Shown here: positions 21,473-60,726 of the stretch, piece by piece | Layout: each line of letters begins with the position of its first letter | Numbering within the stretch: position 1 is the stretch's first letter | Origin: a virus | IMG/VR virus record: IMGVR_UViG_3300029651_000001 | Location: 22,512-86,511 of that record | DNA: 64,000 nt | Strand: one strand, 5' to 3' | Program-made: the position numbers and the translations under genes | The notes under the pieces: model-generated | The model's input: the letters and a program-made list of their open reading frames with translations, nothing else | The model's database searches: none | Told to the model about the DNA's origin: nothing

Positions 21473-22040
21473 CCAGCACCTCCGTGCAATGCATTGCAAG
21501 GACTTCATAGGCTACCTGGCTTAGCTCATGCTCCATGCTCTCTTTGCTTTCGAAAATACCAGTCGTGAACACATATCCCATCTTGTCCCGATACAAGGCG
21601 TAGTGAACCTTCCTGATCTTCGGTTTCATGTAAAGAAAAGGTTCACCGAGACAGCCGTAGCCTTGCGCAGAGAGTGCGTGAACTCCCCCGGTATTGAGGT
21701 TAATCGTCACTACGCGGAATGCTGGACGCGCTTCCGTAACATAGGCAACGAATTTATGCTCGCTGCCGTCAGTGTCCACGGCCAGCTGGCCGGCCTTGAA
21801 AGCCTCCAAATTAAAAGGAATTCTGTTCACGTTTTCAGTCTCCAAAGGGTTGCGCAGGATTTTTAATTCCTCGGTAGGTCCGTATAACGCCATGGCCGGC
21901 TCGCCACCATTACCGTAATCCGTATACACCTTGAGCAGTCCATCTTGGGTTCTCACCACCCGGACGACCCGCTCGTTGTGTTTGGGGCCTCGATGACCAA
22001 TCCAATCACCAGGCATGAGGTCCTTAGCCTCAATCTTCAT
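21462..22040 (-). CDS. hypothetical two-domain protein with an in-frame internal leader motif
   Basis: 192 aa. An in-frame AACCCTTTGGAGAC plus GTG at 21830 precedes the C-terminal domain. Confidence 0.7.
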   Translation of the reverse strand: MKIEAKDLMPGDWIGHRGPKHNERVVRVVRTQDGLLKVYTDYGNGGEPAMALYGPTEELKILRNPLETENVNRIPFNLEAFKAGQLAVDTDGSEHKFVAYVTEARPAFRVVTINLNTGGVHALSAQGYGCLGEPFLYMKPKIRKVHYALYRDKMGYVFTTGIFESKESMEHELSQVAYEVLAMHCTEVLDEK

Positions 22041-22671
22041 TTTTAGCCCTCCAAAGGGTAATCAGGCCTGCAAGGATGAGGGTTGTAGTGGACGGCTCCG
22101 GCAGTTCACGGGTCTCTCTGTCCGGCGCCGCCTCCCTCACCTGTAGCCGGGTGATGTTCCCGCACACCCGAGGTACGGCGATGATGTACTCGCCCAGCCA
22201 GTACACCTCGGCTCGCTCGTAATGCAAGTCCTTGAAATTGGTTCGGGTTCCGTAACACATGCTGTTGCCGAACGCCATCGAATAGGTGGGAACATACCAA
22301 TGGTGGGTGTCTCTGACGCCTGCATTGCTGAACACCGCCTCGTCATCGGAATCCTTACGCTTGATCCGGTCGGTCAAAACCTTGGCGGAGTCCGTGTCTA
22401 CGCCGAGGGTCCGCAAGGCGGAGTAGATATCCCCCGTGAATGGGTGGCTGCCAGGATTGCCCCATTTGCAGCCGTAGCGGAGTTGAAGCGGCCTGTATTC
22501 CGGCTCCCTGATCGGTTCTACCAAATCGGCTGCGTTGCCCAGATCCGTAACACCGGTGGAGTCCGGAGTTGAGGGGGCGATTGTGACGGTCGTGATCGCC
22601 GCCGACAGCGGCAATGAAAAACACAAGCTCCCGACGATGAACCCTCGCCAGAATCTCGACGGTCTTTTCAT
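22030..22671 (-). CDS. exported PEP-CTERM-anchored protein
   Basis: N-terminal signal peptide MKRPSRFWRGFIVGSLCFSLPLSAA. C-terminal LPEPSTTTLILAGLITLWRAKNED has the PEP motif, a TM helix and a basic cluster. Confidence 0.8.
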   Translation of the reverse strand: MKRPSRFWRGFIVGSLCFSLPLSAAITTVTIAPSTPDSTGVTDLGNAADLVEPIREPEYRPLQLRYGCKWGNPGSHPFTGDIYSALRTLGVDTDSAKVLTDRIKRKDSDDEAVFSNAGVRDTHHWYVPTYSMAFGNSMCYGTRTNFKDLHYERAEVYWLGEYIIAVPRVCGNITRLQVREAAPDRETRELPEPSTTTLILAGLITLWRAKNED

Positions 22672-22716: not shown

Positions 22717-22745
22717 CATCGGCCGTGGTGAGAACACGGCCGATG
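22717..22745 (-). terminator. 11-bp GC-rich hairpin, possible end of the tmRNA transcription unit
   Basis: CATCGGCCGTG-7 nt-CACGGCCGATG. On the RNA strand it is followed by TCCTTCAATCCTT, which is only moderately U-rich. Confidence 0.35.
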
Positions 22746-22959
22746 GCTTGCCGGATAAGCTCCGGCGGGCTCTTGTTGCTGGACTTGTACGGCTTACAGC
22801 TCCCGTTTGGTTGTACCTTGATTTCCCCCTAATGCTTGCGGGCTGCAGGGTTTGTGCATCTTGGGTGCGCGAATTCCCATGTCCGGACGCAGTCCCAAGT
22901 AGCAATCAAAGCATTACCATCCAACCAATAATGGCTAGGTCGCAGCTCCCCGGATCGTG

Positions 22960-23370
22960 TCTGTTACCGGATAAGCTCCGGCGGGCTGTTGTCGCCAACG
23001 ACTGCGATTCGGTTGCCCGGCTTCTGTTCTCAAGCGCCGGGCAGGCTCGGCTTTAGGCGGCTGCCTTCAGCGGGGCATACGTATCATCGTTTGCCTTTGT
23101 GGTTTTGCGCGGTTAACGCCCGTCGCCTTTCGTGCTGCCATCTCTGCTTTGCTGCCCCGTCGAAACCTGGCTGGCCCATCAGAAGAAGGCTGTTAGAGCG
23201 TGCAGTAGGAGTCGAACCTTCTTTTGGTGGACCAGGCCGGAATTGAACCGGCGTCCGAGACAACTCCACTTCGATGGAGTTACAGCAATTCGGCGCCCAA
23301 TCTATTCGGCAGACTCCCACTGGACTAGGAGCGCATACTGCCGGCATCCCTACAGGGCGGCCAGGTCTGC
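22960..23370 (-). ncRNA. ssrA: circularly permuted (two-piece) tmRNA gene; outer boundaries approximate
   Basis: Acceptor piece ends TCGGACGCCGGTTCAATTCCGGCCTGGTCCACCA, with its 3' A at 23225. A 47-nt spacer follows. Coding piece starts GGGCCAGCCAGGTTTCGACGGGG at 23177. GGGCCAG pairs with CTGGTCC including a G3:U pair. Tag frame GCAAACGATGATACGTATGCCCCGCTGAAGGCAGCCGCCTAA lies at 23094..23053. Confidence 0.85.
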
Positions 23371-23495
23371 CTTATTGTGAAATCGGTAATATCCCTACAA
23401 AGTCCGTGTCTTCTCGTTCTCCAATTAGGGCGACCCCGTCCGGGCGTAATACATCCAGCTAGGATTAAAAATACCGGCGAGGTCGCGGAACACAT

Positions 23496-23522
23496 AATAA
23501 AAAAGCCGGCGTTGAGCCGGCT
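23496..23522 (-). terminator. rho-independent terminator
   Basis: AGCCGGC-GTTGA-GCCGGCT stem-loop, followed on the minus strand by TTTTTATT. Confidence 0.75.
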
Positions 23523-23546
23523 ATGGGGTCAGTTCACAAGGTTTGG

Positions 23547-23786
23547 CTAGCCGTGTGAGCTACACCACCGTTTCGATACGAAATATCCAATCTGGTGGCT
23601 GACTACCCGGTAAACACCTTGCCCAAACCAGCCCTGACTGGGGACACCGTGCTTCTTCCGGCCGTAGATGTCGGCCGCCGGCACTCCGAAGACCCACACG
23701 GCCATGGGCGTCAGGTCGCCTCCGCAAGCGGGGGCCAGGGCTAGGGCGATCGAGAGGTAAAGGGTTAAGGTGATTGTTGATGTCAT
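23547..23786 (-). CDS. small exported/membrane protein
   Basis: Start MTSTITLTLYLSIALALAPACGG after the leader motif. Confidence 0.6.
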   Translation of the reverse strand: MTSTITLTLYLSIALALAPACGGDLTPMAVWVFGVPAADIYGRKKHGVPSQGWFGQGVYRVVSHQIGYFVSKRWCSSHG

Positions 23787-31836: not shown

Positions 31837-32003
31837 AGTGGCTCAGGGAGGCTTTTTGTTGGCACGAGCTGCGCTTTGTAAACCGACTGCGGCTGGTCAG
31901 GAAAAACAATTGGCTGGAGAGCGTCCCGGTTACCGAGCTGTGCTGTTGGAAGTGCGGCGCGGATGAGCAGAGGCTGCTCTCGTTATGGGGATTTTGGGCC
32001 TGA
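31830..32003 (+). CDS. 57-aa Cys-containing protein
   Basis: Hand translation gives MLKWLREAFCWHELRF...CCWKCGADEQRLLSLWGFWA. TGATG junction with the terminase gene. Confidence 0.45.
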   Translation: MLKWLREAFCWHELRFVNRLRLVRKNNWLESVPVTELCCWKCGADEQRLLSLWGFWA

Positions 32004-33790
32004 TGCACCCTCTTGTCGTTGAGTACTTTGATCGTATCCACGACGCTGTCCTTGAAACGTCTAGCCTGAGTCGCGTTTCGGACTGGATGACGAAGCGGAC
32101 CTTCCTGAACGGGAAACCTTTTAGCTTCAAGGATCACGAGTACCAGATCGAGATCGTCAATACCCAGCACCCGAACTCTTGTTGTATCAAGCCGTCCCAG
32201 GTAGGTATGTCGGAGGCGGAATACCGGATGACTCTTGGGTTGCTGGACATGACGCCCGATAGCGTTGCCCTGCTCCTCATGCCTACCGTCCACGAGGCTC
32301 AGCGTCAGGTCAAGAGCCGTATTGATCCGATCATCCAGGGCTCGAAACACTTGAATTCCAGATTGAATCCTGGAAGTGACTCGGCCAGCTTCAAAATGAT
32401 CGGAACTAGTCAGCTCCATGTTGGAGGGACTTACGGCAAGGCGATCATTTCTATCCCTTGCTCTATGGTAATCGTCGATGAACGGGATTTCTGCAACCCA
32501 GAAGCGTTGATCACCGCGGAGTCCCGCTTGTCGCATGCGCCGCATGTCGACGAAAAGACCGGTCTCCGTGGATTTCGGCGGGAATTTTCGACGCCGACGG
32601 CGTCAGGCATAGGGGTATCGGAATCGTTCGAGCAGTCGGATCAGAAGCGCCGGCTAGTCAAATGCAAGCGCTGTGGTCATTGGTTTTGGCCTAATCTGTT
32701 GGTCCACGGGGTGATCCCAGGGTTCGACCGGAGTCTGGAGGACATCACCTACCTGGATGTCCGGGCGTTGGAAGCCAAAGGGCAGATCGCTAATGCCAAA
32801 ATCCTTTGCGAAAAGTGCCACAACCCGATTACCAAAGAGAATTTGGGGCCGGAGTACCGGGAGTGGGTGGCGGCCCACCCAGAACGGTATCTGGTGGAGG
32901 GGTTCGCGGTAAGTCCGTTTGATTTGCCGGAGTACCACACGGCCCCGACCTTGTTGCGGAAGTTGATCAAGTTCAAGAACGAGTTCGGCCACTGGAAGAA
33001 CTTCACGCTGGGGCTGTCCCACGACGACGCCAGTAACTCTATCCTCGACGAGGTCGTCGAGGAAAACACTGTAATCAAGCCGATCCCTCCGGACGTGGCG
33101 GAGGCGATGAAGCTGCACGGCTGCATTGCCGGGCTCGACGTTGGTAAAACGTCGTGGCTGACGATCGGCAAGGTGGTCGGCCGGAAGGTCCACATCCTGT
33201 GGGTCGAACAGATCCGGCTTCGAGGCGAGAACGGCGACGGCCTGAAGGAGCATGTCATCAAGCGGCTCAAGCAGTATGGCGTCATCCGCTTCGTATCTGA
33301 CGCCCTACCTTACACCGACACGATTCTTAGTATTCGAGACGCGATGCCGGACCAGTTGGTGTACCCCTGCATGTACACCTTGACCGACAAGAAACTGCCG
33401 GCATACGTCCCCAAGGAAACGGAGGGAGAGCGTCAGGTGGACGCCAACCGAACCAAGACGTTGAACCGGGTGGCCAAGCGGGTGAATGGTGGTGAGGTCC
33501 TGTTTCCGATGATGGACGAGATGGAAACCGTTCGGGACCATTTTCAAGGGATGAAGCGGGTGGATCAGACCGACGACCACGGCGAGGTCGAGCAAAACTG
33601 GGTCAAAGGCAGCCGGGACGACCACTACTTTCACGCAGCCAATTACTTGCTGATCGCGGCGGACATGATGGAGGAGTACTACGGGGACTGGGCGCCGGTG
33701 CCTTCGATCACGCAGATCGAGGTCGGTAAAAAAGCAATAGTTGACAAACCGCCCTTGTTCTTGAGGCCGGCCTCCACTAAGATACTGTAA
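32003..33790 (+). CDS. terminase large subunit (GpA-like)
   Basis: About 595 aa. Motifs KPSQVGMSEAEY (Walker-A-like region of the GpA family) and IVDERD. Sits upstream of the portal gene. Confidence 0.85.
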   Translation: MHPLVVEYFDRIHDAVLETSSLSRVSDWMTKRTFLNGKPFSFKDHEYQIEIVNTQHPNSCCIKPSQVGMSEAEYRMTLGLLDMTPDSVALLLMPTVHEAQRQVKSRIDPIIQGSKHLNSRLNPGSDSASFKMIGTSQLHVGGTYGKAIISIPCSMVIVDERDFCNPEALITAESRLSHAPHVDEKTGLRGFRREFSTPTASGIGVSESFEQSDQKRRLVKCKRCGHWFWPNLLVHGVIPGFDRSLEDITYLDVRALEAKGQIANAKILCEKCHNPITKENLGPEYREWVAAHPERYLVEGFAVSPFDLPEYHTAPTLLRKLIKFKNEFGHWKNFTLGLSHDDASNSILDEVVEENTVIKPIPPDVAEAMKLHGCIAGLDVGKTSWLTIGKVVGRKVHILWVEQIRLRGENGDGLKEHVIKRLKQYGVIRFVSDALPYTDTILSIRDAMPDQLVYPCMYTLTDKKLPAYVPKETEGERQVDANRTKTLNRVAKRVNGGEVLFPMMDEMETVRDHFQGMKRVDQTDDHGEVEQNWVKGSRDDHYFHAANYLLIAADMMEEYYGDWAPVPSITQIEVGKKAIVDKPPLFLRPASTKIL

Positions 33791-33975
33791 TGTTGCTGGT
33801 ACGCACGGACGAGGGTCAGCACACCCTCGCCCGCACTTCCGGTATTTCTGACAACGGGGGACCGACTGAACCCCGCCCTTTGGAGACCTTATGATCATCC
33901 AGTCAGGCTTTCAGGGTATGAGACATCTCACAAAAAGTCAACCTTTGACGTGAGCTACCTCACAAGGATTCGTGA

Positions 33976-35448
33976 ATGGCAGCTCCGAAAAGGACTTCTA
34001 AAGGGTCTGTAGACCCTATAAAGCTTCCTAACTCCCTTATTAAAGGGGTCAGGACGGCGACCCCGGCGTCAGGAAAGGATGCCGATTCGTCTATTTCCAA
34101 CACACTGACTTCGGCCTTCAACAGGTCGATTACAGATCTCCGCACCCTCGAGGATAAAGAGGCATTGCGCCTGCTTGCTCGAGCCTACGGAGATGTCTCG
34201 ACAGCAGTCTGGTCTACCTTGAGCCTGGCGAACACGCCGTTGAAGGTGCTGGCCTACGACAGCCAACATCAGATCAGCTTCGACGGCACGATGCTGACCA
34301 AGACGATCCTGACTCGGATGAATTACACGTCGGACTACACCAAAGGGTTCGACGATCGGCCGTCTCTGGAAGGGATCAAAAACTCTCTTCTGAGAGACAT
34401 CCTTCTGGCGGGCGCGTGCGGGGGAGAGTTGGTTCTCGATGAACAACGCCTCCCCAACCAATTCAGAGTCACATCAACCAAGACTCTTAAGTTCAAGACC
34501 GGTACCAAACGGAGTGGTACGTCCTACAACATTGTGCCAGTGCAGAAAGTAGGCTCTGACGAAGTCATACTTAGTTTCCCCACCTTTTTCTATGAGGCTT
34601 TGGATCAGGATCCGGAGTCCGCGTACGCGTTCTCGCCTCTTGAGCCGGCACTGAATTCGGCTCCGCAGTACACGGAGTTGCTGGAGGATGTTCGCCGAGT
34701 GGTCCGGCGGTCCGGACATTCCCGCCTAGTGGTCAAACTGATCACTGAACAGATCATTAAATCTGCACCGCCGGAATACAAAGGTGACCCGGACAAGATG
34801 CAGACCTGGATGACCACGCTGCGGGACCAGATTAAGGAGGAACTGGAGAACCTGAGCCCGGAAACGGCGTTGGTGTTGTTCGATACGCTGGAGGCCGACT
34901 ATCTCAATTCCCAGATTGGCGGACAGTCAGAGTATGGGCCGTTGGTCGAAACTTTTGACGGGGTTCAGTCCACAGCACTCAAGACACCTCCCTCGGTTCT
35001 GGGCAAACGGATGGGGGGGTCCCAGAACGTCTCATCCACTGAGTCGCTGCTTTTCATCAAGACCGCATCAAGAATCCAACCCCCTGTCGCTGCGGTGCTA
35101 TCTAGGGCGATGACCCTAGCCGTCCGGCTCTACGGGTTCGACGGGTACGTGATGGTCTCATTTGACCCAATCGATTTGCGGCCGGAGCACGAGCTCGAAG
35201 CCTTCAAGCAAATGAAACAGCAGAGGGTGTTGGAGCTCTTGTCACTCGGGTTCCTGACTGACGACGAGGCCGCGGAGGAGTTGCGCACCGGGATGAGAGC
35301 CCCGGGAGCGCCCAAGTTGAGCGGGACATTCTTCTACCAAAACCAAGGATTAGGAGCCCCTCCCAACCCAAACGGGGACCCCGCTAAGCGGGCGTTAACC
35401 GGCGACTCTCCGAAGTCCAGCGGAGGTCGGGACAATGCACAAAGGTGA
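33976..35448 (+). CDS. portal protein
   Basis: 490 aa, located between the terminase and the S49 protease. Confidence 0.75.
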   Translation: MAAPKRTSKGSVDPIKLPNSLIKGVRTATPASGKDADSSISNTLTSAFNRSITDLRTLEDKEALRLLARAYGDVSTAVWSTLSLANTPLKVLAYDSQHQISFDGTMLTKTILTRMNYTSDYTKGFDDRPSLEGIKNSLLRDILLAGACGGELVLDEQRLPNQFRVTSTKTLKFKTGTKRSGTSYNIVPVQKVGSDEVILSFPTFFYEALDQDPESAYAFSPLEPALNSAPQYTELLEDVRRVVRRSGHSRLVVKLITEQIIKSAPPEYKGDPDKMQTWMTTLRDQIKEELENLSPETALVLFDTLEADYLNSQIGGQSEYGPLVETFDGVQSTALKTPPSVLGKRMGGSQNVSSTESLLFIKTASRIQPPVAAVLSRAMTLAVRLYGFDGYVMVSFDPIDLRPEHELEAFKQMKQQRVLELLSLGFLTDDEAAEELRTGMRAPGAPKLSGTFFYQNQGLGAPPNPNGDPAKRALTGDSPKSSGGRDNAQR

Positions 35449-35710
35449 CATCGAGTGGCATAGCGGCGTTCTCCGTGTCTTCGCCCCTGGCAAGAGCAAA
35501 CAAAACCGAGACCACTATGTCTGGTGTTGCACAGTCCAGCGGGTAGGAGACACCGCAATCCTGTCCGGGGTGCTCGAAGCTCCAAGCGCGACCATCAGAA
35601 AGGCAGGAATACAAGCCCTTGCCTCGCAAGGTGTAAGGTTCGTTGAGTGGGAACGCTGGGAACCGGGGTCCAGCGAACCGAGAAAGAAAATCAGAGTAAG
35701 AATTGCATGA
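35435..35710 (+). CDS. hypothetical protein
   Basis: 91-aa ORF. Confidence 0.5.
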   Translation: MHKGDIEWHSGVLRVFAPGKSKQNRDHYVWCCTVQRVGDTAILSGVLEAPSATIRKAGIQALASQGVRFVEWERWEPGSSEPRKKIRVRIA

Positions 35711-36018
35711 TGGATCAGTTCACCACCACAGAACCTTCGATAAAAACTTGGATAGGACTGATTAGTACAGTCGCACTATCCGCGGCAGGTTCCGCCATCG
35801 CTGCGATAAAGTGGACAGTTAATAAGTACATACAGAAGATCGAAGCCACTGAGACCAAGATAACCGAGCTGCAGAGAACATACGTCTCCCGCACCGAACT
35901 AGAGTCTTACCTCGCCAAGCTGGAATCCCGCCTGGAGACGCAGACGGTGTCTGGTTTCAACTCCATGCATCGGCGCCTAGACGAGCTCTATCAAACGCTG
36001 TTGAACAGCTCCAAGTAA
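35707..36018 (+). CDS. membrane-anchored coiled-coil protein
   Basis: TM segment WIGLISTVALSAAGSAIAAI followed by coiled-coil sequence. Confidence 0.6.
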   Translation: MMDQFTTTEPSIKTWIGLISTVALSAAGSAIAAIKWTVNKYIQKIEATETKITELQRTYVSRTELESYLAKLESRLETQTVSGFNSMHRRLDELYQTLLNSSK

Positions 36019-36075
36019 CATCTGAATTACTAGCTTGTATCGTCCCTGCTACAGTGATATAACATTGTCAGCTCA

Positions 36076-37488
36076 ATGTCAGGGATCGACATGCACCGCT
36101 TCGAACTATGGATGGGGAATTCCGCCTCGCTGGATGACTATATCCAGCGCATTCAGGCTGTTTCCAAGGGGCTTTACGCCTACTCTGATGACGATAGCCC
36201 GGATCCGGTCTATTTCGACCTACAAGGCAACCTCGGCATCGTTCCCATTAAGGGGTCGTTGACCAACAGCGACGCCTGGTACAACCGGTTCCTTGGCCTC
36301 ACCTCTTACACCCAAATCCGCAATGCCTTGATCGAGGCGTCTCAACACCCGGACGTCGAGACCATTCTCATGACGGTCGACTCGGGAGGAGGCTCTGCCT
36401 CCGGCGTTTCCGATCTCGGTCAACTCATCAAGCTGATCAATGCCGACGTCAAGCCGGTAGTCGCACACACCAGTGGCACGATGGCTTCCGCCGCGTATTG
36501 GCTTGGCGCTTCGGCCGGCAAGGTTTACGCCTCGGACACCGCGGCCGTCGGCAGTGTTGGCGTTATCGCCGTCCACATGGACATCTCGAAGTCGCTGCAG
36601 CAGGACGGCATCAAAGCCACAGTGTTCCGCGCTGGGGACTACAAGGCGCTCGCCAACCCGTACGAACCCTTGTCCGACCGGGCCAAGGCGCAGATGCAGA
36701 GCCAGCTTGACACCCTGTACAGCATTTTTGTCGACCACGTCGCAGACGCTCGAGGCGTGAGCGCGGCCTACGTCAAGGAGCACATGGCCGACGGCAAGGA
36801 GTTCATTGGCAAGGACGCCAAAGACGCTGGGCTGGTGGACGAAATCCTGTCCCTCGATCAGCTCGTTCAGAAATTGCAGGCCGAGAAGCCTGCTGACTCA
36901 CGATACAAGGAGGTATCCGTGGCACAGAAATCCCGCAAATTGACCGATAAGACGGTGGCTGCGATTGCAGCCGGCGTCGACGTGAAGACCGCTCTGGAAC
37001 AAGCGCCGGAAAGCGAAACGGAGACGACCGAGACGCGTACAGACCCTACCCCCGAGGCGAATACCGAGCTCCCCGCAACGGACCCCACGCCTGCGGCTGA
37101 GGACTCCGAGCCCAAGACTTCTCAGGACCAGGCGCCCCTCGTCAATTATCTGCAAACCCAATTGGACGCCAAGACCAGCGAGCTTGTCGATCTGAAGGCT
37201 GCCAACAAGCAGCTGGAAGCTCAGCTGGCCGGTTACAAGGCCAATGAACCTGAGCTCTGCAAGATCGTGGCGCAGTACACCAACAAGATGCAGATCGCTT
37301 TAGGTGGCATAGCCGTGGATCTATCCAAGCTGCCGGCCGACACCTTGCTGGCACAGTGCGCTCAGGTCCAGGAAACCTTCAACAAAACCTTCCCGGTTGG
37401 GGGCGTAACGGCGACCCCGTCCATGGAGGAATCCCCGACAGCCGAAGCGGACCCCGCCAAGCTCAGAGCCGTTAAGCTGAAGAAATAA
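36076..37488 (+). CDS. S49-family head maturation protease fused to a scaffold-like C-terminus
   Basis: Motifs VDSGGGSASG and GTMASAAYWLG. The C-terminal half is acidic and coiled-coil. An alternative start lies at 36091. Confidence 0.85.
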   Translation: MSGIDMHRFELWMGNSASLDDYIQRIQAVSKGLYAYSDDDSPDPVYFDLQGNLGIVPIKGSLTNSDAWYNRFLGLTSYTQIRNALIEASQHPDVETILMTVDSGGGSASGVSDLGQLIKLINADVKPVVAHTSGTMASAAYWLGASAGKVYASDTAAVGSVGVIAVHMDISKSLQQDGIKATVFRAGDYKALANPYEPLSDRAKAQMQSQLDTLYSIFVDHVADARGVSAAYVKEHMADGKEFIGKDAKDAGLVDEILSLDQLVQKLQAEKPADSRYKEVSVAQKSRKLTDKTVAAIAAGVDVKTALEQAPESETETTETRTDPTPEANTELPATDPTPAAEDSEPKTSQDQAPLVNYLQTQLDAKTSELVDLKAANKQLEAQLAGYKANEPELCKIVAQYTNKMQIALGGIAVDLSKLPADTLLAQCAQVQETFNKTFPVGGVTATPSMEESPTAEADPAKLRAVKLKK

Positions 37489-37514
37489 CTCTTGCGTAAC
37501 AAGGAGGTTCGCAG

Positions 37515-37958
37515 ATGACCACGTTTGCTTTTACCGAGTTAGTGCCCACCGAGAAGGTGCTTTCCACCGCCTTAGGTCCGGACGCCAACACCAAGTTTGC
37601 CGACGCGGATGTCGGCAAGGCTGTGAAGTTGGGTACTGCCAACAACTATGTCGCAGTCGTCGCCGACGACGAGATCGAGGGCTTTGTGACTTCGATCGAG
37701 CCGTTCACCGTGAATAGTGGGTTTTCGTTTGGAGGTGTCGTCGTCTCTGGCCGGGTCACGGCCGAAGTTGGCGCCAACCAGGGCGTGACCCCAATGGCCG
37801 TGGGCGACTACGTCGTCGCCGACACCCCGGTGGCCTTGGGCACCGCGGGCAAAGCGAAGGTGAAAACCGGTGCGCCGTCGAAATATCTCTGGCGGTGCGT
37901 CCGGATCATCTCCGGCACCGGAGCAGCGGGCAGCACCGTCCTGCTCGAAAGAACTTAA
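37515..37958 (+). CDS. head decoration/cement-like protein (DUF2190-like)
   Basis: 147 aa, Gly/Val-rich beta protein between the protease and the major capsid gene. SD is AAGGAGG. Confidence 0.65.
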   Translation: MTTFAFTELVPTEKVLSTALGPDANTKFADADVGKAVKLGTANNYVAVVADDEIEGFVTSIEPFTVNSGFSFGGVVVSGRVTAEVGANQGVTPMAVGDYVVADTPVALGTAGKAKVKTGAPSKYLWRCVRIISGTGAAGSTVLLERT

Positions 37959-37990
37959 TTTATCTCATCGGGCAAGGAGGCCTTACAGAG

Positions 37991-39181
37991 ATGCCACAAA
38001 TCAGAGACCGAGAAGGAAAAGTCCAGGAAGTCGACGTGACCCTGGAGGACTACAGGGGGGCCGTTGACTCGGGGATGAGTTTCCCGGCGTACCTCAAAAC
38101 CAAATTCAAGACCGACGAGGAGAAGTACGGGACACCGTTCGAGCAAATGCTGGCCTCCAGCGGCTTCTTCTTGCGAGAAGACCGGGCCTCCGGCATCCGT
38201 CCGCCGACCGTGAAGCAGATGCTGGAGTACAACGGCAACTCGATCAGCATGGGCCCGCTGGTCCGTCCGGACGGTTCGCAGGCGCTGACCATTACGGGTC
38301 GACTGCTGTTCGCGACGACCGTGATGGAATTGGTGGAAAGCGCTCTACTGGAAGACACCAGCTCGTATGCGGCCATGTGGAACCGGCTCATTGCCGTAAC
38401 TACGTCGGTGGACACGCCTCGGGTGGACATTCCGATCATCACGTCGACCGGGCCGCGTGCTGACCGTAGTCAGCCGATCGCTCAGTTGGCGACGCCGCCC
38501 AACATGACCAGCATCACGCTTAGCTCGAAGAGCTATCGGATGCCGACGTTCTCGATCGGTCTCGAAATTTCGTACGAGGCGCAAGCAGCGGTGACACTGG
38601 ATCTGGTCAACATCATCCTGAAGCAGCAAGCTGAAGGCGAGCGGATGGCGTTGATCGACGAGGCGATCAAAAGGCTGGTCGACGGCGACACCGACTGGGG
38701 TTTGTCGGCGCTGTCCGCAGACCTGATCACCGCGTACGACAGTACCATTAACACCAACGGCAAGATGACCCAGGAGGCATGGGTCAAGTGGCTGCGCTCG
38801 GATCGGCGTCGCAAGACCATCAATTGGGTGATCGGAGACCTGAACGCTTATCTGGCTGTTGAAGGTCGCGAGAACCGCCCGACGGTCACTAACAACAAGG
38901 GCACCGACGAGCGGATCAACTCCGTACCGGTCTTGGCCGATATCGGGTTGCCGCAGCAGGTCAACTTCTTCGACATCGACACCGATATCCTCGGCGCCAA
39001 TACGATCGTCGGCGTGGATACCTCCAAGGCGATTCGCAAATGGGTATACACGGGGGCGGAGTATGAGGCTATCGAGCAGTTCGTGCTGCGTAAAGCTACT
39101 GCGCTTCGCATCGACTGGTCCGAAGCCTACGGCCGAATCTTCGACGAAGCCTTCAAGAAGACCACGCTGACTACTTCTTAA
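37991..39181 (+). CDS. major capsid protein
   Basis: 396 aa. SD is CAAGGAGG. Identified by position, and it is followed by a strong terminator. Confidence 0.75.
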   Translation: MPQIRDREGKVQEVDVTLEDYRGAVDSGMSFPAYLKTKFKTDEEKYGTPFEQMLASSGFFLREDRASGIRPPTVKQMLEYNGNSISMGPLVRPDGSQALTITGRLLFATTVMELVESALLEDTSSYAAMWNRLIAVTTSVDTPRVDIPIITSTGPRADRSQPIAQLATPPNMTSITLSSKSYRMPTFSIGLEISYEAQAAVTLDLVNIILKQQAEGERMALIDEAIKRLVDGDTDWGLSALSADLITAYDSTINTNGKMTQEAWVKWLRSDRRRKTINWVIGDLNAYLAVEGRENRPTVTNNKGTDERINSVPVLADIGLPQQVNFFDIDTDILGANTIVGVDTSKAIRKWVYTGAEYEAIEQFVLRKATALRIDWSEAYGRIFDEAFKKTTLTTS

Positions 39182-39187
39182 CCGATG

Positions 39188-39218
39188 GGCCGGGGCTAAG
39201 AACCCCGGCCTAATTTTG
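39188..39218 (+). terminator. rho-independent terminator after the capsid gene
   Basis: GGCCGGGG-7 nt-CCCCGGCC followed by TAATTTTG. Confidence 0.7.
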
Positions 39219-39219
39219 C

Positions 39220-39420
39220 TTGATGAGTGACTCGATTTCTCAACTTCGCGCCAGGCTACAGGAGCCATCTACTCGTATCGGGATTGTGTTTCTCGTTGGA
39301 CTGCTGGGGCACAAGATCTCGATCGAATGGACGCAGAACGCCATCGACGCGTTTTTGCTCATCCTGTCCCTGTATGAAATTTGGCGCAAAGAGCACGCAC
39401 ACAAGGAGAACCCCCCGTGA
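39220..39420 (+). CDS. small membrane protein
   Basis: Hydrophobic segments IGIVFLVGLLG and AFLLILSLY. Confidence 0.5.
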   Translation: MMSDSISQLRARLQEPSTRIGIVFLVGLLGHKISIEWTQNAIDAFLLILSLYEIWRKEHAHKENPP

Positions 39421-39920
39421 GACGGACACTTAACGTACTTTTGTTTACTGGGTTAGCGGCGTTTTCGTCGATTAGCCACCCGGCAGCTCTTTCCGATTAC
39501 CTGGAAAACAAACTTGTCGACTATTTGCTGCGAGGCCAAGCCTATTCGGCTCCGGCATCTGTTTATGTCACCTTGGCCACTACTTCCGGCAGTGATGCGG
39601 CTTGTGGCACCGAGGTCTCCGGAGGTAGCTTCGCACGGGTTGAGGTCACCAGTTCGCTTTCGAACTGGGCAGGCACTCAGTCCGCGGGGTCTACTACAGT
39701 ATCCAGCGGCACCGGTGGTACGACGTCGAATAACGCGGCTATCACCTTCCCGGCGCCGACGGCGAACTGGGGTCAGGTGACCGAGTTTTGCGTTTTCGAT
39801 GCAGCAACAGATGGCAACCTCTTGTTTCGATCAGCACTAACTACCCCGAAGACGATAAACAACGGGGACGCGGCCCCGAGCTTCGCGATCGGAGCGCTCA
39901 CGTTCCAGATCGATAATTGA
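39417..39920 (+). CDS. virion-module protein with signal-peptide-like N-terminus
   Basis: GTG start in a GTGA overlap. Start MRRTLNVLLFTGLAAFSSISHPAA. The body carries NNAAITFPAPTANWGQVTEF. Confidence 0.65.
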   Translation: MRRTLNVLLFTGLAAFSSISHPAALSDYLENKLVDYLLRGQAYSAPASVYVTLATTSGSDAACGTEVSGGSFARVEVTSSLSNWAGTQSAGSTTVSSGTGGTTSNNAAITFPAPTANWGQVTEFCVFDAATDGNLLFRSALTTPKTINNGDAAPSFAIGALTFQIDN

Positions 39921-39929
39921 GGAGACGTC

Positions 39930-40352
39930 ATGACTCGCTTACTGTTGGCTTATTTAGCTGCCACGGCATTGCTGTCGGGTTGCGCAGGATTCGGCCGCAC
40001 TGAGGCGCTCGGCCTCACTCAGGCACTGCTTGCCGCTATCCCTCAAGACGCCATCACTCAAGGCACCTTCCTGACTGGCACTTTGGCGGATTCAGGCTCG
40101 TTCGAGACGGCTGTGGCGCCGGTGAAGACCAGGCTGGCTGTCGTTCGCCGGTCAGCTGCCAAGGCCGTGAGAGAGAAACGCATCAACATGGCGACAGCTA
40201 AAGAGATCTTGAGGCTGTCCGACAAAGCGGACGCCAAGATCAACCTCGCCTGGTCCGACAAGCAGGGCACCCTCGCGGCCAAGCTAGCCCTTGCGGATGC
40301 CGAAGCGCTGTTGGATCAGGCCGATACTTTGCTGGAAGGAACACGTAAATGA
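39930..40352 (+). CDS. lipoprotein
   Basis: Lipobox LLSGC after MTRLLLAYLAATA. Confidence 0.7.
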   Translation: MTRLLLAYLAATALLSGCAGFGRTEALGLTQALLAAIPQDAITQGTFLTGTLADSGSFETAVAPVKTRLAVVRRSAAKAVREKRINMATAKEILRLSDKADAKINLAWSDKQGTLAAKLALADAEALLDQADTLLEGTRK

Positions 40353-40513
40353 AAGTGGATGTTGCACTGAGGCTGTCGGCAGCCTTGCTAGAGGCTGCGG
40401 AGAAGGCTATCAAGAAAGGTCAGAACGAGTTCGATCTGATGGAAGCCTTGTCAGATGAAGCCGCGTCCGCCCGTGCGGACTTGGTCGAAGCTATCCAGGA
40501 AGCGCAGCCGTAA
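40349..40513 (+). CDS. 54-aa helical protein
   Basis: Hand translation gives MKVDVALRLSAALLEAAEKAIKKGQNEF... with an AATGA junction. Confidence 0.45.
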   Translation: MKVDVALRLSAALLEAAEKAIKKGQNEFDLMEALSDEAASARADLVEAIQEAQP

Positions 40514-40599
40514 TCCTTTTGTCTCGTCTGACACTGACGATCGAACTGGGTTGCGTGTTCCGTTGAGAGGTTTGTCCGAGGGCGTGACGAGTATGGGTC

Positions 40600-41040
40600 A
40601 TGGACTACCAGGCACTTAAAACTGAAATCGAAACCGGACCGCTGTCAGCCGAGATCGCGCCGTATCTTGCAAATGGCAACTTGGACGGCGTGCTCGGTGT
40701 ACTCAACGATCTCCGGTTTTCTCGAGTCGCAGACACATATGTTAATGCGCGGCGGCTGATGTCGTTGCTCGGTGCCGCCGAAGCTGTCGTGATCCTCGAC
40801 AAGCTTGATGCGGCCAAGGCCAGCGATGCGCGGCTCAAGTGGGCGATGAACTTCATGGTTAACGGCGGAGTTAACTTGGGGGATCCAGAAACCCGGCTAG
40901 CATTAGAAGACCTGGCGTTGTCGGGAGTGCTTACGAACGAAGAACGCGACACACTTAAAGCATTGGCGGAAGTGCCTGCGAGCCGAGCCGAACTGCTGTT
41001 CGGCCGACGACTTACTTTGCCTGACTTGTGGAGGCTTTGA
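40600..41040 (+). CDS. hypothetical virion-module protein
   Basis: 146-aa ORF. Confidence 0.65.
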   Translation: MDYQALKTEIETGPLSAEIAPYLANGNLDGVLGVLNDLRFSRVADTYVNARRLMSLLGAAEAVVILDKLDAAKASDARLKWAMNFMVNGGVNLGDPETRLALEDLALSGVLTNEERDTLKALAEVPASRAELLFGRRLTLPDLWRL

Positions 41041-41041
41041 A

Positions 41042-41437
41042 GTGACTGCTTTAGCCGCCAATTGGCGCATTCAAATTAAAAATTCAACCGGCGCCACGTC
41101 TGGAGCTGTGTCGGTCAAAGGCAAGCGCTGGGTACCCGGCAGCTCCGGGGAGATAAATTTCGAGGACAGCGAACAGACGTTCGCTTCCGACACGACAATT
41201 GCGTCCGGCGCATATCTCTCAGGCTCGTCAATCAGTAACGACGGTGTGGGAGAAGGGTATCACGGCGTCCAACTGTCAATTTCAATTACAAATGGATCGA
41301 GCGCCGGCAACTACGAGTTGTATTTGCAGCACTCGTCTGATGGTGGCACAACCTGGCCCGATGCTGGTGAGGGTGAGCTGATCGGCGTGGTAAATGTCGG
41401 CGCGAGCGCCACGAAAAAGACGAGCTTAGTTATTTAA
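41042..41437 (+). CDS. hypothetical virion-module protein
   Basis: 131 aa with a GTG start. Confidence 0.6.
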   Translation: MTALAANWRIQIKNSTGATSGAVSVKGKRWVPGSSGEINFEDSEQTFASDTTIASGAYLSGSSISNDGVGEGYHGVQLSISITNGSSAGNYELYLQHSSDGGTTWPDAGEGELIGVVNVGASATKKTSLVI

Positions 41438-43362
41438 TGTCGGTGATCACCCTTCCAAGCCGCAAGATCCGACTACGGGATTTCAAGCCGGATTTTCCGG
41501 TTCGGGCAAAGCCCAAGCTGGATCTGCTGTTTTGGCCTGGATCCCCTGTCGATCTCGCTCGCCGGCAACCAGTTGTCCACGGGGCAAATGGCCAGTCAGC
41601 AGTAACTGATGAGGGTCGCGCTTGGCGAGTAGCCTCCGGATCGGACGCCCATGTGTACATCGATTCCGCGATATCCGGATCCGTCCCAGCGACCTATTTG
41701 GCTGTTATCAGGTTCAACACCCTCACGGGCACGACGTTCAGTGGGATCAGCGCTAACAACAGCGGAGCAGTGATTGTATCCCAGCGCGAGGTAGATGCTG
41801 ACAGGTCACTAACATTTTGCGTGTCCAATAATGCCACATCCGGCAGCGCCGTCATGGGGTTATGGTTCGGGTTGGACTCCGTTGGTAACGCGAGGGGCAG
41901 AAAAGGGGGGACGGCGATCACGACCGGGCGCTGGTATCACGTGGCTGGCACATTCGATCCAGCAGTTGGATTCCCTAACGGATGTCATGTTTATGTAGAT
42001 GGCAACCTGGATGATGCGGCAACATCCAACATCGGTACAGCCACGACATTCAGTGGCAGCCGCACGCGGCTAGGTGCCCACCATTTGTGGCCGAATACTG
42101 CGGATGATGACGCGGATATTGAAATCTCATATATAGCTAGACTACCGGTGGCACTGAGCGCTTCGGAAATTGCAAAATGGCATGTTGACCCATTCGGCTA
42201 TGTGGTTGAGCCTCTCCGCCGCCGCATCTTTGTCATGCTCGATGTAGGGGGTGGCGCCGCGGAGCTTACCAGTGCGGCGTCAAGTCAAGCTGAGAGCTCT
42301 GGCAGCATCACTGCAGCCATCCCTTTATTATCCGCAGCCGCTTCCGTAACCACAGCATCCGGTGATCTCACCGCCTCTATCCCTCTGTCCGCGGTAGCTG
42401 CAATGCTGTCAACTGGCAGCGGCGCACTTACCGCCCAGATTAAGCTGTCCGCGGCCTCAGTAGTTCAAGCTTTGGCTTCGGCTGGTTTGGATCTGTCTAC
42501 CCTGTTCAGCGGGAATGTCCAGGCTGAAGCTGTTGCCACCGGACAGTTGTCCACATCAATACTTCTGTCTGCCAATGCCTTGACTCAAATCTCCGCGTCC
42601 GGAGCTTTCGAGAGCTCCTCAGCTGCATTGGTCGGGAACGCAGAAACCCAGACGTCCGCGTCGGCCAATCTCTCTATCCAGATCAAACTTTCCGGTGCTG
42701 CGATTGCTGAGTCCCTGCTTTCGGGTGGTCTCGCCACCACCATCCCACTGGCTACTGAAGCCCTCAGTAGAGCAGTCTCGGCAGGACAAATCCAGACTAC
42801 CAGCCATCTAGCCGGAGGTGCTGCCAACGACGTTACCGTGTCCGGCGACCTGACTGCGCCTGGCGATACGTCGATGTATGGGCAAGCCTCTGGATTGACG
42901 CAAACAACAGGCCAACTGACGACCGCCATTTTGACAGGCTCCGCAGCTCTTGCCCTGTCCTCCAGTTCCGGATCCCTGACCACGTTGATTCCCTTAAGTG
43001 GGGCGTCCGTGGCCTTGGCTGCCGGCGGCGGCGATCTGACCGCGACGATAGCCTTGTCAGCATCGGTGCTAGCCCAAGCTCTCGCGACTGGCCAACTAGA
43101 CTCAGACGCTGCTGAACTTTTCAGCGGAGTAACCTCCGAGGTGCAAAGTTTAGGGGAGCTTACAACGTACATCCGATTGAACACCCAGGCCCTCGTGCAG
43201 GCTTATGTTGCGGGACAGATGACCACCGGTATCCCCTTCTCAACATTAGCCAAAGCGTCGTCCACCGCCACCGCGTTACTTGCTGGCACCGGCTTGGGTC
43301 GAGGGTATAATGCGAGTATCGAGAATGTGACACCGGCAAGGACGCTAGAGCGTGTACATTAG
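41437..43362 (+). CDS. LamG/concanavalin-like domain protein with a long Ala/Ser/Thr tandem-repeat tail
   Basis: Motif GRWYHVAGTFD...CHVYVDGNLDD. Then about 17 degenerate repeats of roughly 20 aa, of the form SGxLTTxIxLSAxAxxxA. Confidence 0.8.
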   Translation: MSVITLPSRKIRLRDFKPDFPVRAKPKLDLLFWPGSPVDLARRQPVVHGANGQSAVTDEGRAWRVASGSDAHVYIDSAISGSVPATYLAVIRFNTLTGTTFSGISANNSGAVIVSQREVDADRSLTFCVSNNATSGSAVMGLWFGLDSVGNARGRKGGTAITTGRWYHVAGTFDPAVGFPNGCHVYVDGNLDDAATSNIGTATTFSGSRTRLGAHHLWPNTADDDADIEISYIARLPVALSASEIAKWHVDPFGYVVEPLRRRIFVMLDVGGGAAELTSAASSQAESSGSITAAIPLLSAAASVTTASGDLTASIPLSAVAAMLSTGSGALTAQIKLSAASVVQALASAGLDLSTLFSGNVQAEAVATGQLSTSILLSANALTQISASGAFESSSAALVGNAETQTSASANLSIQIKLSGAAIAESLLSGGLATTIPLATEALSRAVSAGQIQTTSHLAGGAANDVTVSGDLTAPGDTSMYGQASGLTQTTGQLTTAILTGSAALALSSSSGSLTTLIPLSGASVALAAGGGDLTATIALSASVLAQALATGQLDSDAAELFSGVTSEVQSLGELTTYIRLNTQALVQAYVAGQMTTGIPFSTLAKASSTATALLAGTGLGRGYNASIENVTPARTLERVH

Positions 43363-43657
43363 TTTCGTCATCCCTTCTGGGTTCGGAAACACCTCCGAAA
43401 TCCGCCTGAAATTGGGCGCCAGCATTATTGATCACACGCAAATCACTCGCGCTCAGTTGGTCGTTGATCGCACAATTGTGCTCGACAGCGAGACTGCACC
43501 CGACTTGTTCGACCGGACTCAAACAGACCGACTCATCCTTCGTTTGGGTGCAGCCGGGCTAGCCTTAGGTCATCACACTGCCAAGTTGATTACCTACGAC
43601 GGTACAAACCCCTTGGGCGTGTTGTGGAACACACCCATTCGACTAATCGTTATCTAA
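43352..43657 (+). CDS. hypothetical protein
   Basis: 101-aa ORF. Confidence 0.55.
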   Translation: MYISFVIPSGFGNTSEIRLKLGASIIDHTQITRAQLVVDRTIVLDSETAPDLFDRTQTDRLILRLGAAGLALGHHTAKLITYDGTNPLGVLWNTPIRLIVI

Positions 43658-43667
43658 GGAGAGATGT

Positions 43668-43907
43668 ATGAGTGCTACAGGGACTACCAAAGCCGCGGAA
43701 GGATCCAAGACGTCCGCAGCGCCACCCATGGCAAACGATAAGCCGAAGAAGCCTGAACCCAAAACAATCCGGCTGGTCACCACGTGTGACTTGTTGGAGC
43801 CTATCGGGAAGACGTGGTTTCGTGCCGGACAACCAGTTGCGGTCGATAAAATCACCGGGTGGATGCAGTCCCAAATCAACGCCCACTTGATGGAAGTCGT
43901 TGAATGA
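43668..43907 (+). CDS. hypothetical protein
   Basis: 79 aa. SD is TAAGGAGAG. Confidence 0.6.
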   Translation: MSATGTTKAAEGSKTSAAPPMANDKPKKPEPKTIRLVTTCDLLEPIGKTWFRAGQPVAVDKITGWMQSQINAHLMEVVE

Positions 43908-44365
43908 TCGAAGTCCTTTACACGGACACCGACCGGATCCGAGAGGCCTTACAGATCACGGTAGAAGACCTGGCTGACGAGCGATTCAGCAAAGGCACCC
44001 TGGAGCTGGATTTGATGCTGGATCTTGATGACTGGATCCCGACCCACGCTACGATTTACGCAGCGGGGTTGGGGGCCCCTACGCAAGTTCAGCTTAAGCA
44101 ACACCATCTGCTGGTCGCCTACAGTACCTATTTCTGTGCTGATCAGACACTCCACACCGGCCCTCTGTCGATGCCGCAGAACATCAGCGACGGCAAGAAC
44201 ACTATTGAGCGGCTTGACGACCGGCAGAGGCTTGTGGAGTTCATTGCCGGGCGCATGGCCAAGTACAAGAATCTGCTGACTGAGGCAGTGACTGGCTCTG
44301 CTGTGGCCCGTGGCGGCCACCTTATCGGTGTAGGGTCCGCTTACGATCCGGTAACGGGGGCTTAA
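43904..44365 (+). CDS. head-tail connector candidate
   Basis: 153 aa. Called from its position between the head and tail modules. Confidence 0.6.
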   Translation: MIEVLYTDTDRIREALQITVEDLADERFSKGTLELDLMLDLDDWIPTHATIYAAGLGAPTQVQLKQHHLLVAYSTYFCADQTLHTGPLSMPQNISDGKNTIERLDDRQRLVEFIAGRMAKYKNLLTEAVTGSAVARGGHLIGVGSAYDPVTGA

Positions 44366-44943
44366 TGAACCTTAAAGGTGCCGCCAGTTATTTCGCCAGA
44401 ACCCAGATCGACGGTTGGAACGGGTCGGATTGGGATTTAGACATAGCTCGCGGTGCTTATCTTCCGTTTGATCGATTCATTTCGGAGCGAGAATTTGGGA
44501 ACAAGCGTCGGCACTTACTGTGCAACCCTGACTCGTCCATTCCCGAGGATTACAAAGTCGTCCGGTTGAACGACGAAATCTTCCTGCTCGGTGTCCGTAA
44601 CGACGACAGGCAGGGCAGCGTTTACAGTCATGTTTTCTTGCTCCACCGCGCCCCATTTCAAGCAGACTTGATGGAGTACACGAAAACCACAGCGGCTTCC
44701 GGGGTCGCAGGGTCGGCTGTGAAGACGTCGGTTGGGGTTTACCATTGCGATGCCGAACGCATGAGCTACATGAATTCACGAGAGTTCGACGCTATGCGGT
44801 TCTCCGAGATGCAAATCCTGCTGCCGTCGAACTGCCCGGCCACCATCGAGCACGAGCTGAAAATCGGCGATTACTTTTATGAGGTAGAGGAAGTGTTCCC
44901 TTCCTCTGGGTTTGTCGCCTGCCGAGCGGTGAGAAAGAAATGA
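44365..44943 (+). CDS. head-tail connector/tail completion candidate
   Basis: 192 aa with an ATGA junction. Confidence 0.6.
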   Translation: MNLKGAASYFARTQIDGWNGSDWDLDIARGAYLPFDRFISEREFGNKRRHLLCNPDSSIPEDYKVVRLNDEIFLLGVRNDDRQGSVYSHVFLLHRAPFQADLMEYTKTTAASGVAGSAVKTSVGVYHCDAERMSYMNSREFDAMRFSEMQILLPSNCPATIEHELKIGDYFYEVEEVFPSSGFVACRAVRKK

Positions 44944-45389
44944 GCTACGAAATCTTCCCCCTCGCCGTCAAATCCACCATCGACAAGCTCGCCATAGGCT
45001 TGGCGGACAGCGAGTCCCTAGCATACATCGATATTGACGGAGTGCTCTTAGAGGCTGCGCTCGTGGAGTCAGACCAACCGGCCCTAGGTTGGAGTCTGTC
45101 CACAATGGCCGACTCCCCCATGGACCCGATGTATTACCTGGAATTCGAGATCGGGGGTATCACAGCGATCGACCCGGCACAGTACAAGGCCTTAGATATC
45201 GTCGGTTTGACGCGCAGCGTGTTTAAGCCAGGCACGGACATCCCCGTCTTCGACTACAGCGGGGAGGTCGCAGGCGTCGAGCAACTGGGTATCATCCACG
45301 TTACTTGGTCTGGAGTAGCACCAAAACAATTCGATCGAGCCGCCGGCCTTCGCATGGCAACCGTTCAGGCTCGTGCCTTGAGGTTTTAA
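44940..45389 (+). CDS. tail completion candidate
   Basis: 149 aa with an ATGA junction. Confidence 0.6.
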   Translation: MSYEIFPLAVKSTIDKLAIGLADSESLAYIDIDGVLLEAALVESDQPALGWSLSTMADSPMDPMYYLEFEIGGITAIDPAQYKALDIVGLTRSVFKPGTDIPVFDYSGEVAGVEQLGIIHVTWSGVAPKQFDRAAGLRMATVQARALRF

Positions 45390-45390
45390 G

Positions 45391-46239: not shown

Positions 46240-46278
46240 CTTTTTCACTCACCTAACTTCGTCAAGGAGGACGATGTA

Positions 46279-47103: not shown

Positions 47104-47148
47104 CTGCGAGGCCGCTTTTGGCGGCCGGTCCGGACTTACCAGGGACCT

Positions 47149-47177
47149 CTGGCCGCCTTCGGGCGGCCAGCTTTTAT
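47149..47177 (+). terminator. rho-independent terminator after the major tail gene
   Basis: CTGGCCGCC-TTCG-GGCGGCCAG followed by CTTTTAT. Confidence 0.75.
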
Positions 47178-47188
47178 CGAGGCATTGA

Positions 47189-47749: not shown

Positions 47750-47760
47750 AGGAGCCAAGG

Positions 47761-60678: not shown

Positions 60679-60726
60679 GCATTCATAATGCGGGTGTCGG
60701 CGGTTCAAGTCCGCCCGTAGCTACCA
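60679..60726 (+). other. 3' fragment of a tRNA with CAU anticodon (Met or Ile2 type), candidate attP core
   Basis: GCA-TTCATAA-TGCGG-GTGTC-GGCGG-TTCAAGT-CCGCC-CGTAGCT-A-CCA. No matching 5' acceptor, D arm or full anticodon stem lies upstream. Confidence 0.7.

Follow-up and report, generated by a model that had tools for sequence, protein, structure and literature searches.

A stretch of 64,000 nucleotides of viral DNA (positions 22,512 to 86,511 of the IMG/VR record IMGVR_UViG_3300029651_000001, referred to below in its whole length as the window) carries on its minus strand, at positions 22960-23370, a gene for transfer-messenger RNA (tmRNA), ssrA, in circularly permuted form, with the tRNA-like 3' half placed ahead of the 5' half. 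The question raised by this locus is whether such a gene belongs to the virus or to a bacterial chromosome next to it and, if it is viral, what it could do there. The reading favoured here, which on balance is probably correct, is that a structurally complete permuted ssrA is present as an accessory cassette among the early genes of a temperate Methylocaldum phage of ~86 kb, where it would act in ribosome rescue by the mechanism set out below. The identity of the gene, its permutation, its structural intactness, its location in a phage, the host, the attachment site and the absence of a phage SmpB were all computed directly.

Identity and fold of the permuted gene

ARAGORN calls a permuted tmRNA at 22962..23317 on the minus strand, with the tag ANDDTYAPLKAAA followed by a stop. 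Two covariance models of Rfam 15 match the same locus, namely RF04321 (tmRNA_permuted; 124.3 bits against a gathering score of 47, E value 7.5e-24, model positions 1-213 of 213) and RF01850 (beta_tmRNA; 119 bits against a gathering score of 84, E value 1.2e-35, model positions 1-331 of 331), both of them untruncated and covering the whole model. Beta_tmRNA is the top-scoring permuted subtype, weaker overlapping matches of the same clan having been dropped by clan competition. The order of the pieces is that of a permuted gene, as the tRNA-like 3' half, ending ...GGACGCCGGTTCAATTCCGGCCTGGTCCACCA, stops with its CCA at 23225, and the 5' half, GGGCCAGCCAGGTTTCGACGGGG, begins with G1 at 23177, after a gap of 47 nucleotides. 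Downstream, a reading frame without a start codon (GCA AAC GAT GAT ACG TAT GCC CCG CTG AAG GCA GCC GCC TAA) leads from the resume codon GCA at 23094 to the TAA ending at 23053 and encodes ANDDTYAPLKAAA. A second ARAGORN call on this strand, a one-piece tmRNA at 23225..23634 with the tag GSTPAFLLCVPRPRRYF, was rejected as an artefact: it recycles the tRNA-like 3' half already assigned to the permuted gene, and RF00023 gives no match.

The acceptor stem comprises 7 bp, formed between GGGCCAG and CUGGUCC, and presents the G3:U70 pair, the discriminator A73 and an encoded CCA. The T-arm, GCCGG-UUCAAUU-CCGGC, contains GGUUCNANUCC, and the intervening segment at 23224-23178 folds into an AAGAAGG/CCUUCUU stem of its own. 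The two strands of helix P2, at 23287-23255 and 23159-23133, pair in the Rfam alignment, with 2 mismatches in one 4-bp sub-helix, and an unconstrained RNAcofold prediction for the two pieces (minimum free energy structure) recovers the T-arm, the intermolecular acceptor stem and P2; of its 33 pairs, 28 link one piece to the other. Support for the predicted two-piece fold is comparative. It comes from an alignment of 29 distinct permuted tmRNAs from IMG/VR plus that of the window, in which only the stem positions left unconstrained by the search pattern were scored: these are paired in 97.5% of cells, against 64% (maximum 72%) when partners are shuffled, with 2-5 pair types per position, and the stems of the window tmRNA itself are all paired.

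A first-pass annotation, made from the letters of the window alone, had described a two-piece permuted ssrA at this place, and its account of the molecule holds throughout. The coordinates and sequences that it gave for the 3' half, the 47-nt spacer, the 5' half and the tag frame were re-derived on the minus strand and are correct; the checks that it had named, ARAGORN with permuted detection and the Rfam covariance models, both gave a positive result; and the 7-bp acceptor stem with its G3:U alanine identity pair, the separate stem within the spacer and the P2 pairing on joint folding of the two pieces were all recovered.

The phage, its attachment site and its host

The source of the gene is an ~86-kb temperate siphovirus-like phage. 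Genes for the terminase large subunit (TerL), portal, protease, major head protein, an 1824-residue tape measure and a tyrosine integrase are found in the window; HU, DNA ligase, SNF2 helicase and PolA are encoded to the left of it, and past the integrase, on the right, follow genes for a sigma-70 region-4 protein, the small subunit of ribonucleotide reductase, dNMP kinase, SbcCD-like proteins and RNase T. An exact match to the window is provided by the ENA contig k141_10347 (93 kb), and many JGI and SRA samples contain contigs that are nearly identical. The genome is estimated at ~86.4 kb because the integrase region is present at both ends of k141_10347. According to ARAGORN the phage has no tRNA genes, and its tmRNA was found 99.5-100% identical in at least 7 further contigs of the same phage, from several samples.

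A leader motif with the core CCTTTGGAG occurs at 27 sites (337 to 63591), against 0.89 expected in the window, usually with an ATG 5-10 nucleotides downstream, and is also present beyond the integrase. Its full minus-strand signature reads TTAAGGAC-N4-GTACTTAA, then ACCCTTTGGAGA, then the ATG 5-10 nucleotides on; its palindromic portion resembles an operator or promoter element, the remainder an extended ribosome-binding leader. The motif flanks the tmRNA at 22679-22687 and 23792-23800, as the first-pass annotation had observed in arguing that the gene is phage-encoded and not host-flanking, and that argument stands: where host genes at the flanks would have spoken against it, phage genes extend for more than 20 kb on either side, and the attachment site is a tRNA-Met gene 37 kb away.

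This phage attachment site (attP) has as its core the 3' 48 nucleotides of a tRNA-Met(CAT) gene, so that the phage integrates at tRNA-Met and not at ssrA; the positions concerned are 60679-60726 of the window and 11398-11474 of L016. Contig k141_10347 opens with 93 non-phage nucleotides holding a TTGACA-N18-TACTAT promoter and the 5' half of a complete tRNA-Met, which constitutes the left junction (attL), and it also reads through the attP form. Because one contig holds both, the assembly must mix integrated and circular genomes. Prophages often integrate into ssrA (PMC4383910; for Methylococcus, PMC12924245), and the window does carry an integrase, both of which would suit a host ssrA at a prophage junction or a tmRNA that serves as attP and regenerates the host ssrA on integration. 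This explanation is refuted by the tRNA-Met attP, by the recovery of an attL with the complete host tRNA-Met and its promoter, and by the absence of any tmRNA fragment near the integrase, the only further fragment in the window being a segment 216 nucleotides downstream. The integrase, moreover, lies 38 kb from the tmRNA, so that the arrangement is not that of an Islander-type ssrA junction, and genes with the phage leader surround the tmRNA for more than 20 kb, which together leave virtually no probability to a host origin at the prophage edge.

The host could be identified through the attL flank, a 63-nt stretch of which was found, without mismatch, in a single metagenome contig (361,614 bp). 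There the same complete tRNA-Met is followed by a different island, and a neighbouring YqaA-family protein is 89% identical to that of Methylocaldum sp.; on a sister contig, the glycogen phosphorylase is 99% identical to Methylocaldum sp. 14B, 87% to M. szegediense and 73-78% to Methylocalor, Methylomagnum and Methylococcus. Because of this contig and of neighbour proteins with 89-99% identity, the host is identified as Methylocaldum, a gammaproteobacterial methanotroph. Other approaches were uninformative in this respect: a megablast against cultured phages gave no match, and the best TerL identity was 33%, to Vibrio phages, from which no host can be inferred; and the tRNA-Met sequence gave 80-85% matches to plasmids and phages over many Proteobacteria. 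A scan of genome contigs with the T-arm/acceptor 28-mer gave two matches, both tRNA genes (Vicinamibacterales and Longispora), and no ssrA. Judging from the documented distribution of permuted genes (PMC9004378, PMC11915505), Methylocaldum presumably uses a one-piece tmRNA. The tmRNA of the window thus resembles the beta_tmRNA subtype and is not a chromosomal member of the betaproteobacterial lineage, as it resides in a phage of Methylocaldum (Methylococcales). The tRNA-Met locus is an integration hotspot in Methylocaldum-like contigs. Two phage-free contigs of this kind (L142 1272-6011 and L144 2306-9500) carry the same tRNA-Met followed by integrase remnants and by PIN/VapC, ParE and helix-turn-helix genes.

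In its immediate surroundings (Table 1), the tmRNA is followed by 290 strongly structured nucleotides (z = -3.7 for the region 22672-22995, minus strand) that end in the hairpin at 22745-22717. The 32-nt CCGG-loop-CCGG hairpin segment that closes the gene is repeated, with 91% identity, 216 nucleotides downstream, and a CCGG-loop-CCGG hairpin also ends the tmRNAs of contigs L126 and L041 on their 3' side; the duplication is possibly a recombination or att-like scar, or else a second processing hairpin. A search of the tmRNA flanks for riboswitches or other Rfam RNA elements gave nothing credible at E <= 1. SmpB was also looked for in the phage, with a best tblastn E value of 10 and no PF01668 in the phage gene tables. 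The 213-residue protein encoded downstream has a sole diverged homologue, 59% identical and preceded by the same leader motif, in a relative that has no tmRNA upstream and differs in gene order. Because this relative has no tmRNA at the homologous position, the gene behaves as an accessory, moron-like cassette. The relative (L143) carries at 1-285, just upstream of a leader motif, what remains of the C-terminus of an IS605-type TnpB-like zinc-ribbon protein, and its early gene order is mosaic with respect to the window.

Table 1. Positions in the window of the tmRNA gene, its parts, its neighbours and the phage landmarks
Feature	Position	Strand	Basis or remarks
Whole permuted ssrA gene (5' leader, acceptor piece, intervening segment, coding piece)	22962..23342	-	ARAGORN 22962..23317; beta_tmRNA 22987-23342; tmRNA_permuted 23053-23287
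Acceptor piece	23225..23289	-	P2 5' strand 23287-23255, T-arm 23252-23236, CUGGUCC and ACCA 23235-23225; sequence, Rfam structure line, cofold
47-nt intervening segment with its own 9-bp stem	23178..23224	-	Sequence, cofold; presumably removed by RNase P and 3'-end processing, by analogy with two-piece tmRNAs
Coding piece	22962..23177	-	GGGCCAG 23177-23171, GGUUUCGAC D-loop analogue, P2 3' strand 23159-23133, PK1 region, tag open reading frame (ORF)
Coding piece, 3' part	23042-23015 (hairpin after the stop), then terminal CCGG-loop-CCGG hairpin	-	Sequence, Rfam, cofold
Tag reading frame GCA..TAA, ANDDTYAPLKAAA	23053..23094	-	ARAGORN; same frame in the Rfam alignment around the resume codon; unchanged in 7 other contigs
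Intrinsic terminator, 7-bp GC stem and T-run	23499..23522	-	Closes upstream ORF, bounds cassette on 5' side
Upstream small phage ORF	23547..23840	-	Leader motif 23791-23867
Second copy, 91% identical, of the 32-nt 3'-terminal hairpin segment	22748..22779	-	First copy 22964-22995; repeat family D13
11-bp GC-rich hairpin just ahead of the next early-gene leader	22717..22745	-	Probable 3' cassette boundary
Downstream phage ORF, 213 residues, no known family	22030..22671	-	Leader motif 22678-22705
Structural module (TerL, portal, protease, major head, tape measure)	31985..53235	+	Marks phage identity
attP core, 3' 48 nucleotides of tRNA-Met(CAT) gene	60679..60726	+	Integration at tRNA-Met, not ssrA
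Tyrosine integrase adjoining attP	61014..62123	-	phrog_1, PF00589

Elsewhere in the phage, a GspH or N-methyl pseudopilin-like gene (59971-60561, minus strand) stands next to attP, where the tail module ends, and may serve in lysogenic conversion; a variant phage, L015, has a different allele of it, of 184 residues. At 6370-7423 (minus strand), tandem small ORFs share a 34-nt repeat at spacings of 338 and 320 nucleotides (family D8), which suggests paralogous early genes.

Relatives, tag and function

Phage ssrA genes have been listed since those of the mycobacteriophage Bxz1 group and Bacillus phage G (PMC4131195). In a survey of 2021, 402 out of 18,146 phage genomes had a tmRNA, with 133 unique forms of which 53 are two-piece by ARAGORN, and the OM43 myophage Melnitz served as the worked example (PMC9004378); permuted forms occur in Stenotrophomonas, Citrobacter, Streptomyces and cyanobacterial phages (PMC9004378 Table S1), and a tmRNA database of 2025 holds 79 bacteriophage sequences (PMC11915505). 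Among bacteria, permuted ssrA is distributed over the Alphaproteobacteria, one betaproteobacterial lineage and one cyanobacterial lineage (PMC9004378, PMC11915505). The rarity implied by the first-pass annotation is therefore not borne out: besides these catalogued cases, permuted tmRNAs are common in IMG/VR, where a generic permuted pattern matches at least 120 contigs, 118 of them confirmed by ARAGORN among the matches listed.

When 12 of the best matches were passed through Rfam, 11 proved to be beta_tmRNA. The closest sequence sampled, with 72% identity, belongs to Stenotrophomonas phage vB_Sm_QDWS359. In its record (ON331942.1, at ~34.7-35.1 kb; L141 2803-3220), the permuted tmRNA is unannotated, has the tag ANDSVYAQAIAA and scores 108.7 bits with RF04321; it adjoins tRNA-fMet and tRNA-Ile genes and is overlapped on the opposite strand by the 'hypothetical protein' vBSmQDWS359_42. 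Three other beta-type permuted tmRNAs, in contigs L077 (5904-6249), L126 (5893-6239) and L041 (1955-2288), have tags that run past VAA, respectively ANDAQFLVAANA, ANDAEFKVAAYA and ANDANFKVAANA; in L077 and L126 the gene has a DnaB helicase on one side and terminase genes on the other. That the odd-tagged beta-type tmRNAs form a 'phage clade' is not supported, as the identities to phage-embedded and host-type sequences all fall within 63-72% and no proteins are shared with the phage of the window.

Among described systems, Melnitz, related pelagimyophages and cyanophages (PMC9004378) likewise carry a complete permuted ssrA between terminators, have no SmpB, and have a tmRNA type that is not obviously that of the host lineage. 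Melnitz, however, is a 141-kb lytic T4-like marine myophage of Methylophilales (OM43), with an alpha-type tmRNA and a glutamine riboswitch (PMC9004378), whereas the ~86-kb temperate siphovirus-like methanotroph phage described here has a beta-type tmRNA with an AAA tag end, and no riboswitch was found beside the gene. The betaproteobacterial two-piece tmRNA (RF01850; Sharkady & Williams 2004, as reported in PMC9004378) corresponds to the present one in piece order, P2 architecture and the ANDx.YA start of the tag; here, in contrast, the gene is carried by a phage, scores lower (119 versus 130-197 bits) and specifies a longer tag ending in KAAA instead of LAA. The Stenotrophomonas phages Mendera, Moby, YB07 and IME-SM1, Citrobacter phage Mordin and Streptomyces phage BRock (PMC9004378 Table S1), together with vB_Sm_QDWS359, resemble this case in that their host lineages are not recorded with permuted ssrA. 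Their tags end in IAA or LAA-like residues, unlike the AAA found here, and the tmRNA of vB_Sm_QDWS359 stands beside tRNA genes, whereas the Methylocaldum phage is temperate and has none. Finally, the phage ssrA homologues of the Bxz1 group and Bacillus phage G, which are one-piece, and of DS6A (PMC4131195) equally depend on the SmpB of the host, although those of the Bxz1 group and phage G follow the standard gene order and that of DS6A has no tag ORF, while the present gene is permuted and complete.

For expression, processing, charging, tagging and benefit, we infer the following course. The cassette would be transcribed as a single precursor, from which RNase P and the 3'-end enzymes of the host would cut out the 47-nt segment, leaving an acceptor piece of ~65 nucleotides ending in CCA and a coding piece of ~215 nucleotides, joined to each other through the 7-bp acceptor stem and P2. 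The alanyl-tRNA synthetase of the host would charge the molecule through G3:U70 and A73, and host SmpB and EF-Tu would bring it to stalled ribosomes, where translation would restart at GCA, with ANDDTYAPLKAAA added as the tag. What the phage probably gains is additional capacity for ribosome rescue, in infected cells or in lysogens, and the tagged products would probably still be degradable.

Several observations weigh against a functional cassette of this kind. The cofold energy of the two pieces is not below that of shuffles (z = -1.1), because of which thermodynamics does not count as the structural evidence. In the Rfam alignment, 2 of the 4 pairs of the hairpin ahead of the resume codon are non-canonical (a covariance model cannot represent pseudoknots), as are 2 of 4 in one P2 sub-helix, the last 3' hairpin is poor, and the score of 119 bits lies below the 130-197 bits of host-type beta tmRNAs. 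A sigma-70-type promoter was looked for upstream of the tmRNA and none was found, and the AAA end of the tag is unusual. Among the available copies, all 99.5-100% identical, the mature RNA has no single-nucleotide polymorphisms against ~1.9 expected, which is not significant; 23 strain polymorphisms fall in the 4 kb around the gene. Part of this would equally be expected of a passenger in decay, captured by recombination, devoid of function and persisting merely through recency. Besides the low Rfam score, the weakened stems and the lack of a recognised promoter, such a history would accommodate the absence of the gene from the sole diverged relative found, the 32-nt duplication of its 3' end, suggestive of a recombination scar, and a closest relative at most 72% identical. 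Nevertheless, the tRNA-like identity elements are all intact, the tag frame is open, with its ANDD.YA start and an in-frame TAA, and terminator-type hairpins bound the cassette neatly. Selection since divergence is indicated because the stems still pair at ~30% divergence from any sampled relative, and decay is thus distinctly unlikely. An inhibitor or decoy of host trans-translation, titrating SmpB or ribosomes as the tRNA-like-domain-only molecule of mycobacteriophage DS6A would, has a precedent in the inhibition of tmRNA by the DS6A form in E. coli (PMC4131195, PMC11915505), and is compatible with a phage without its own SmpB and with a beta-like tmRNA type that may differ from that of the host. 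The gene does not have the DS6A form, though, as it keeps a full mRNA-like domain, resume codon, tag ORF and P2, all of them superfluous for an SmpB sponge, which makes this role very improbable.

The remaining alternatives concern the fate of the tagged proteins. The tag ANDDTYAPLKAAA opens as ordinary gamma- and betaproteobacterial tags do (ANDD.YA) and ends in KAAA, whereas 107 of the 118 permuted tags from the IMG/VR contigs end in LAA, VAA or MAA and a single other one in AAA. The first-pass annotation had suggested that this ending alters protease targeting or gives the gene a decoy role, a suggestion that is possible but weakly grounded. In its more specific form, rescue would proceed normally but ...PLKAAA would be a poor substrate for ClpXP/SspB, and the products would be spared or sent to another protease. 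The rarity of the AAA end speaks for this, as do the odd ends ...VAANA and ...VAAYA of tmRNAs that are among the best nhmmer matches (L041, and L077 and L126, the latter two embedded in phage genes), and PMC7652416, where it cites Flynn 2001, reports that mutation of the antepenultimate Leu raises the Michaelis constant (KM) of ClpXP in E. coli. That increase is only modest, however, and the same source gives the terminal Ala-Ala-COO- as the main ClpX determinants in E. coli. These two residues are retained in ANDDTYAPLKAAA, where only the antepenultimate position differs, being Ala and not Leu, Val or Met. Additionally, most tmRNAs within phage tRNA clusters keep LAA, MAA or VAA among the matches listed, so that an altered end is no general phage trait, and the phage relatives with odd tags are no nearer to the present gene than several host-type sequences (67-72% identity throughout). 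An altered degron is, accordingly, rather unlikely. A bolder version, in which an imported beta-like permuted tmRNA with a ...PLKAAA tag re-routes rescued polypeptides in lysogens or infected cells, through escape from ClpXP/SspB or through reading by another factor, and turns trans-translation from mere added rescue capacity into a phage-controlled switch, must be considered improbable; if it were true, the ...VAANA and ...VAAYA ends of the phage-embedded beta-type tmRNAs would belong to the same strategy.

Significance for phage tmRNA biology

The phage-borne permuted tmRNA is real. Since permuted tmRNA genes had been described from phages before, it is a further example and not a new kind, and it leaves known tmRNA biology unchanged. 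Annotation pipelines still overlook genes of this type, as illustrated by the 'hypothetical protein' coding sequence that lies over one in a cultured Stenotrophomonas phage. To the catalogue of phage tmRNAs the gene makes a well-anchored addition, since it comes from a temperate phage with a mapped tRNA-Met attachment site and a named host genus, Methylocaldum, a methanotroph of industrial and environmental relevance. It thereby offers a tractable system in which to ask why phages carry tmRNA and whether the permuted form can function together with SmpB from a host whose own tmRNA is presumably one-piece.

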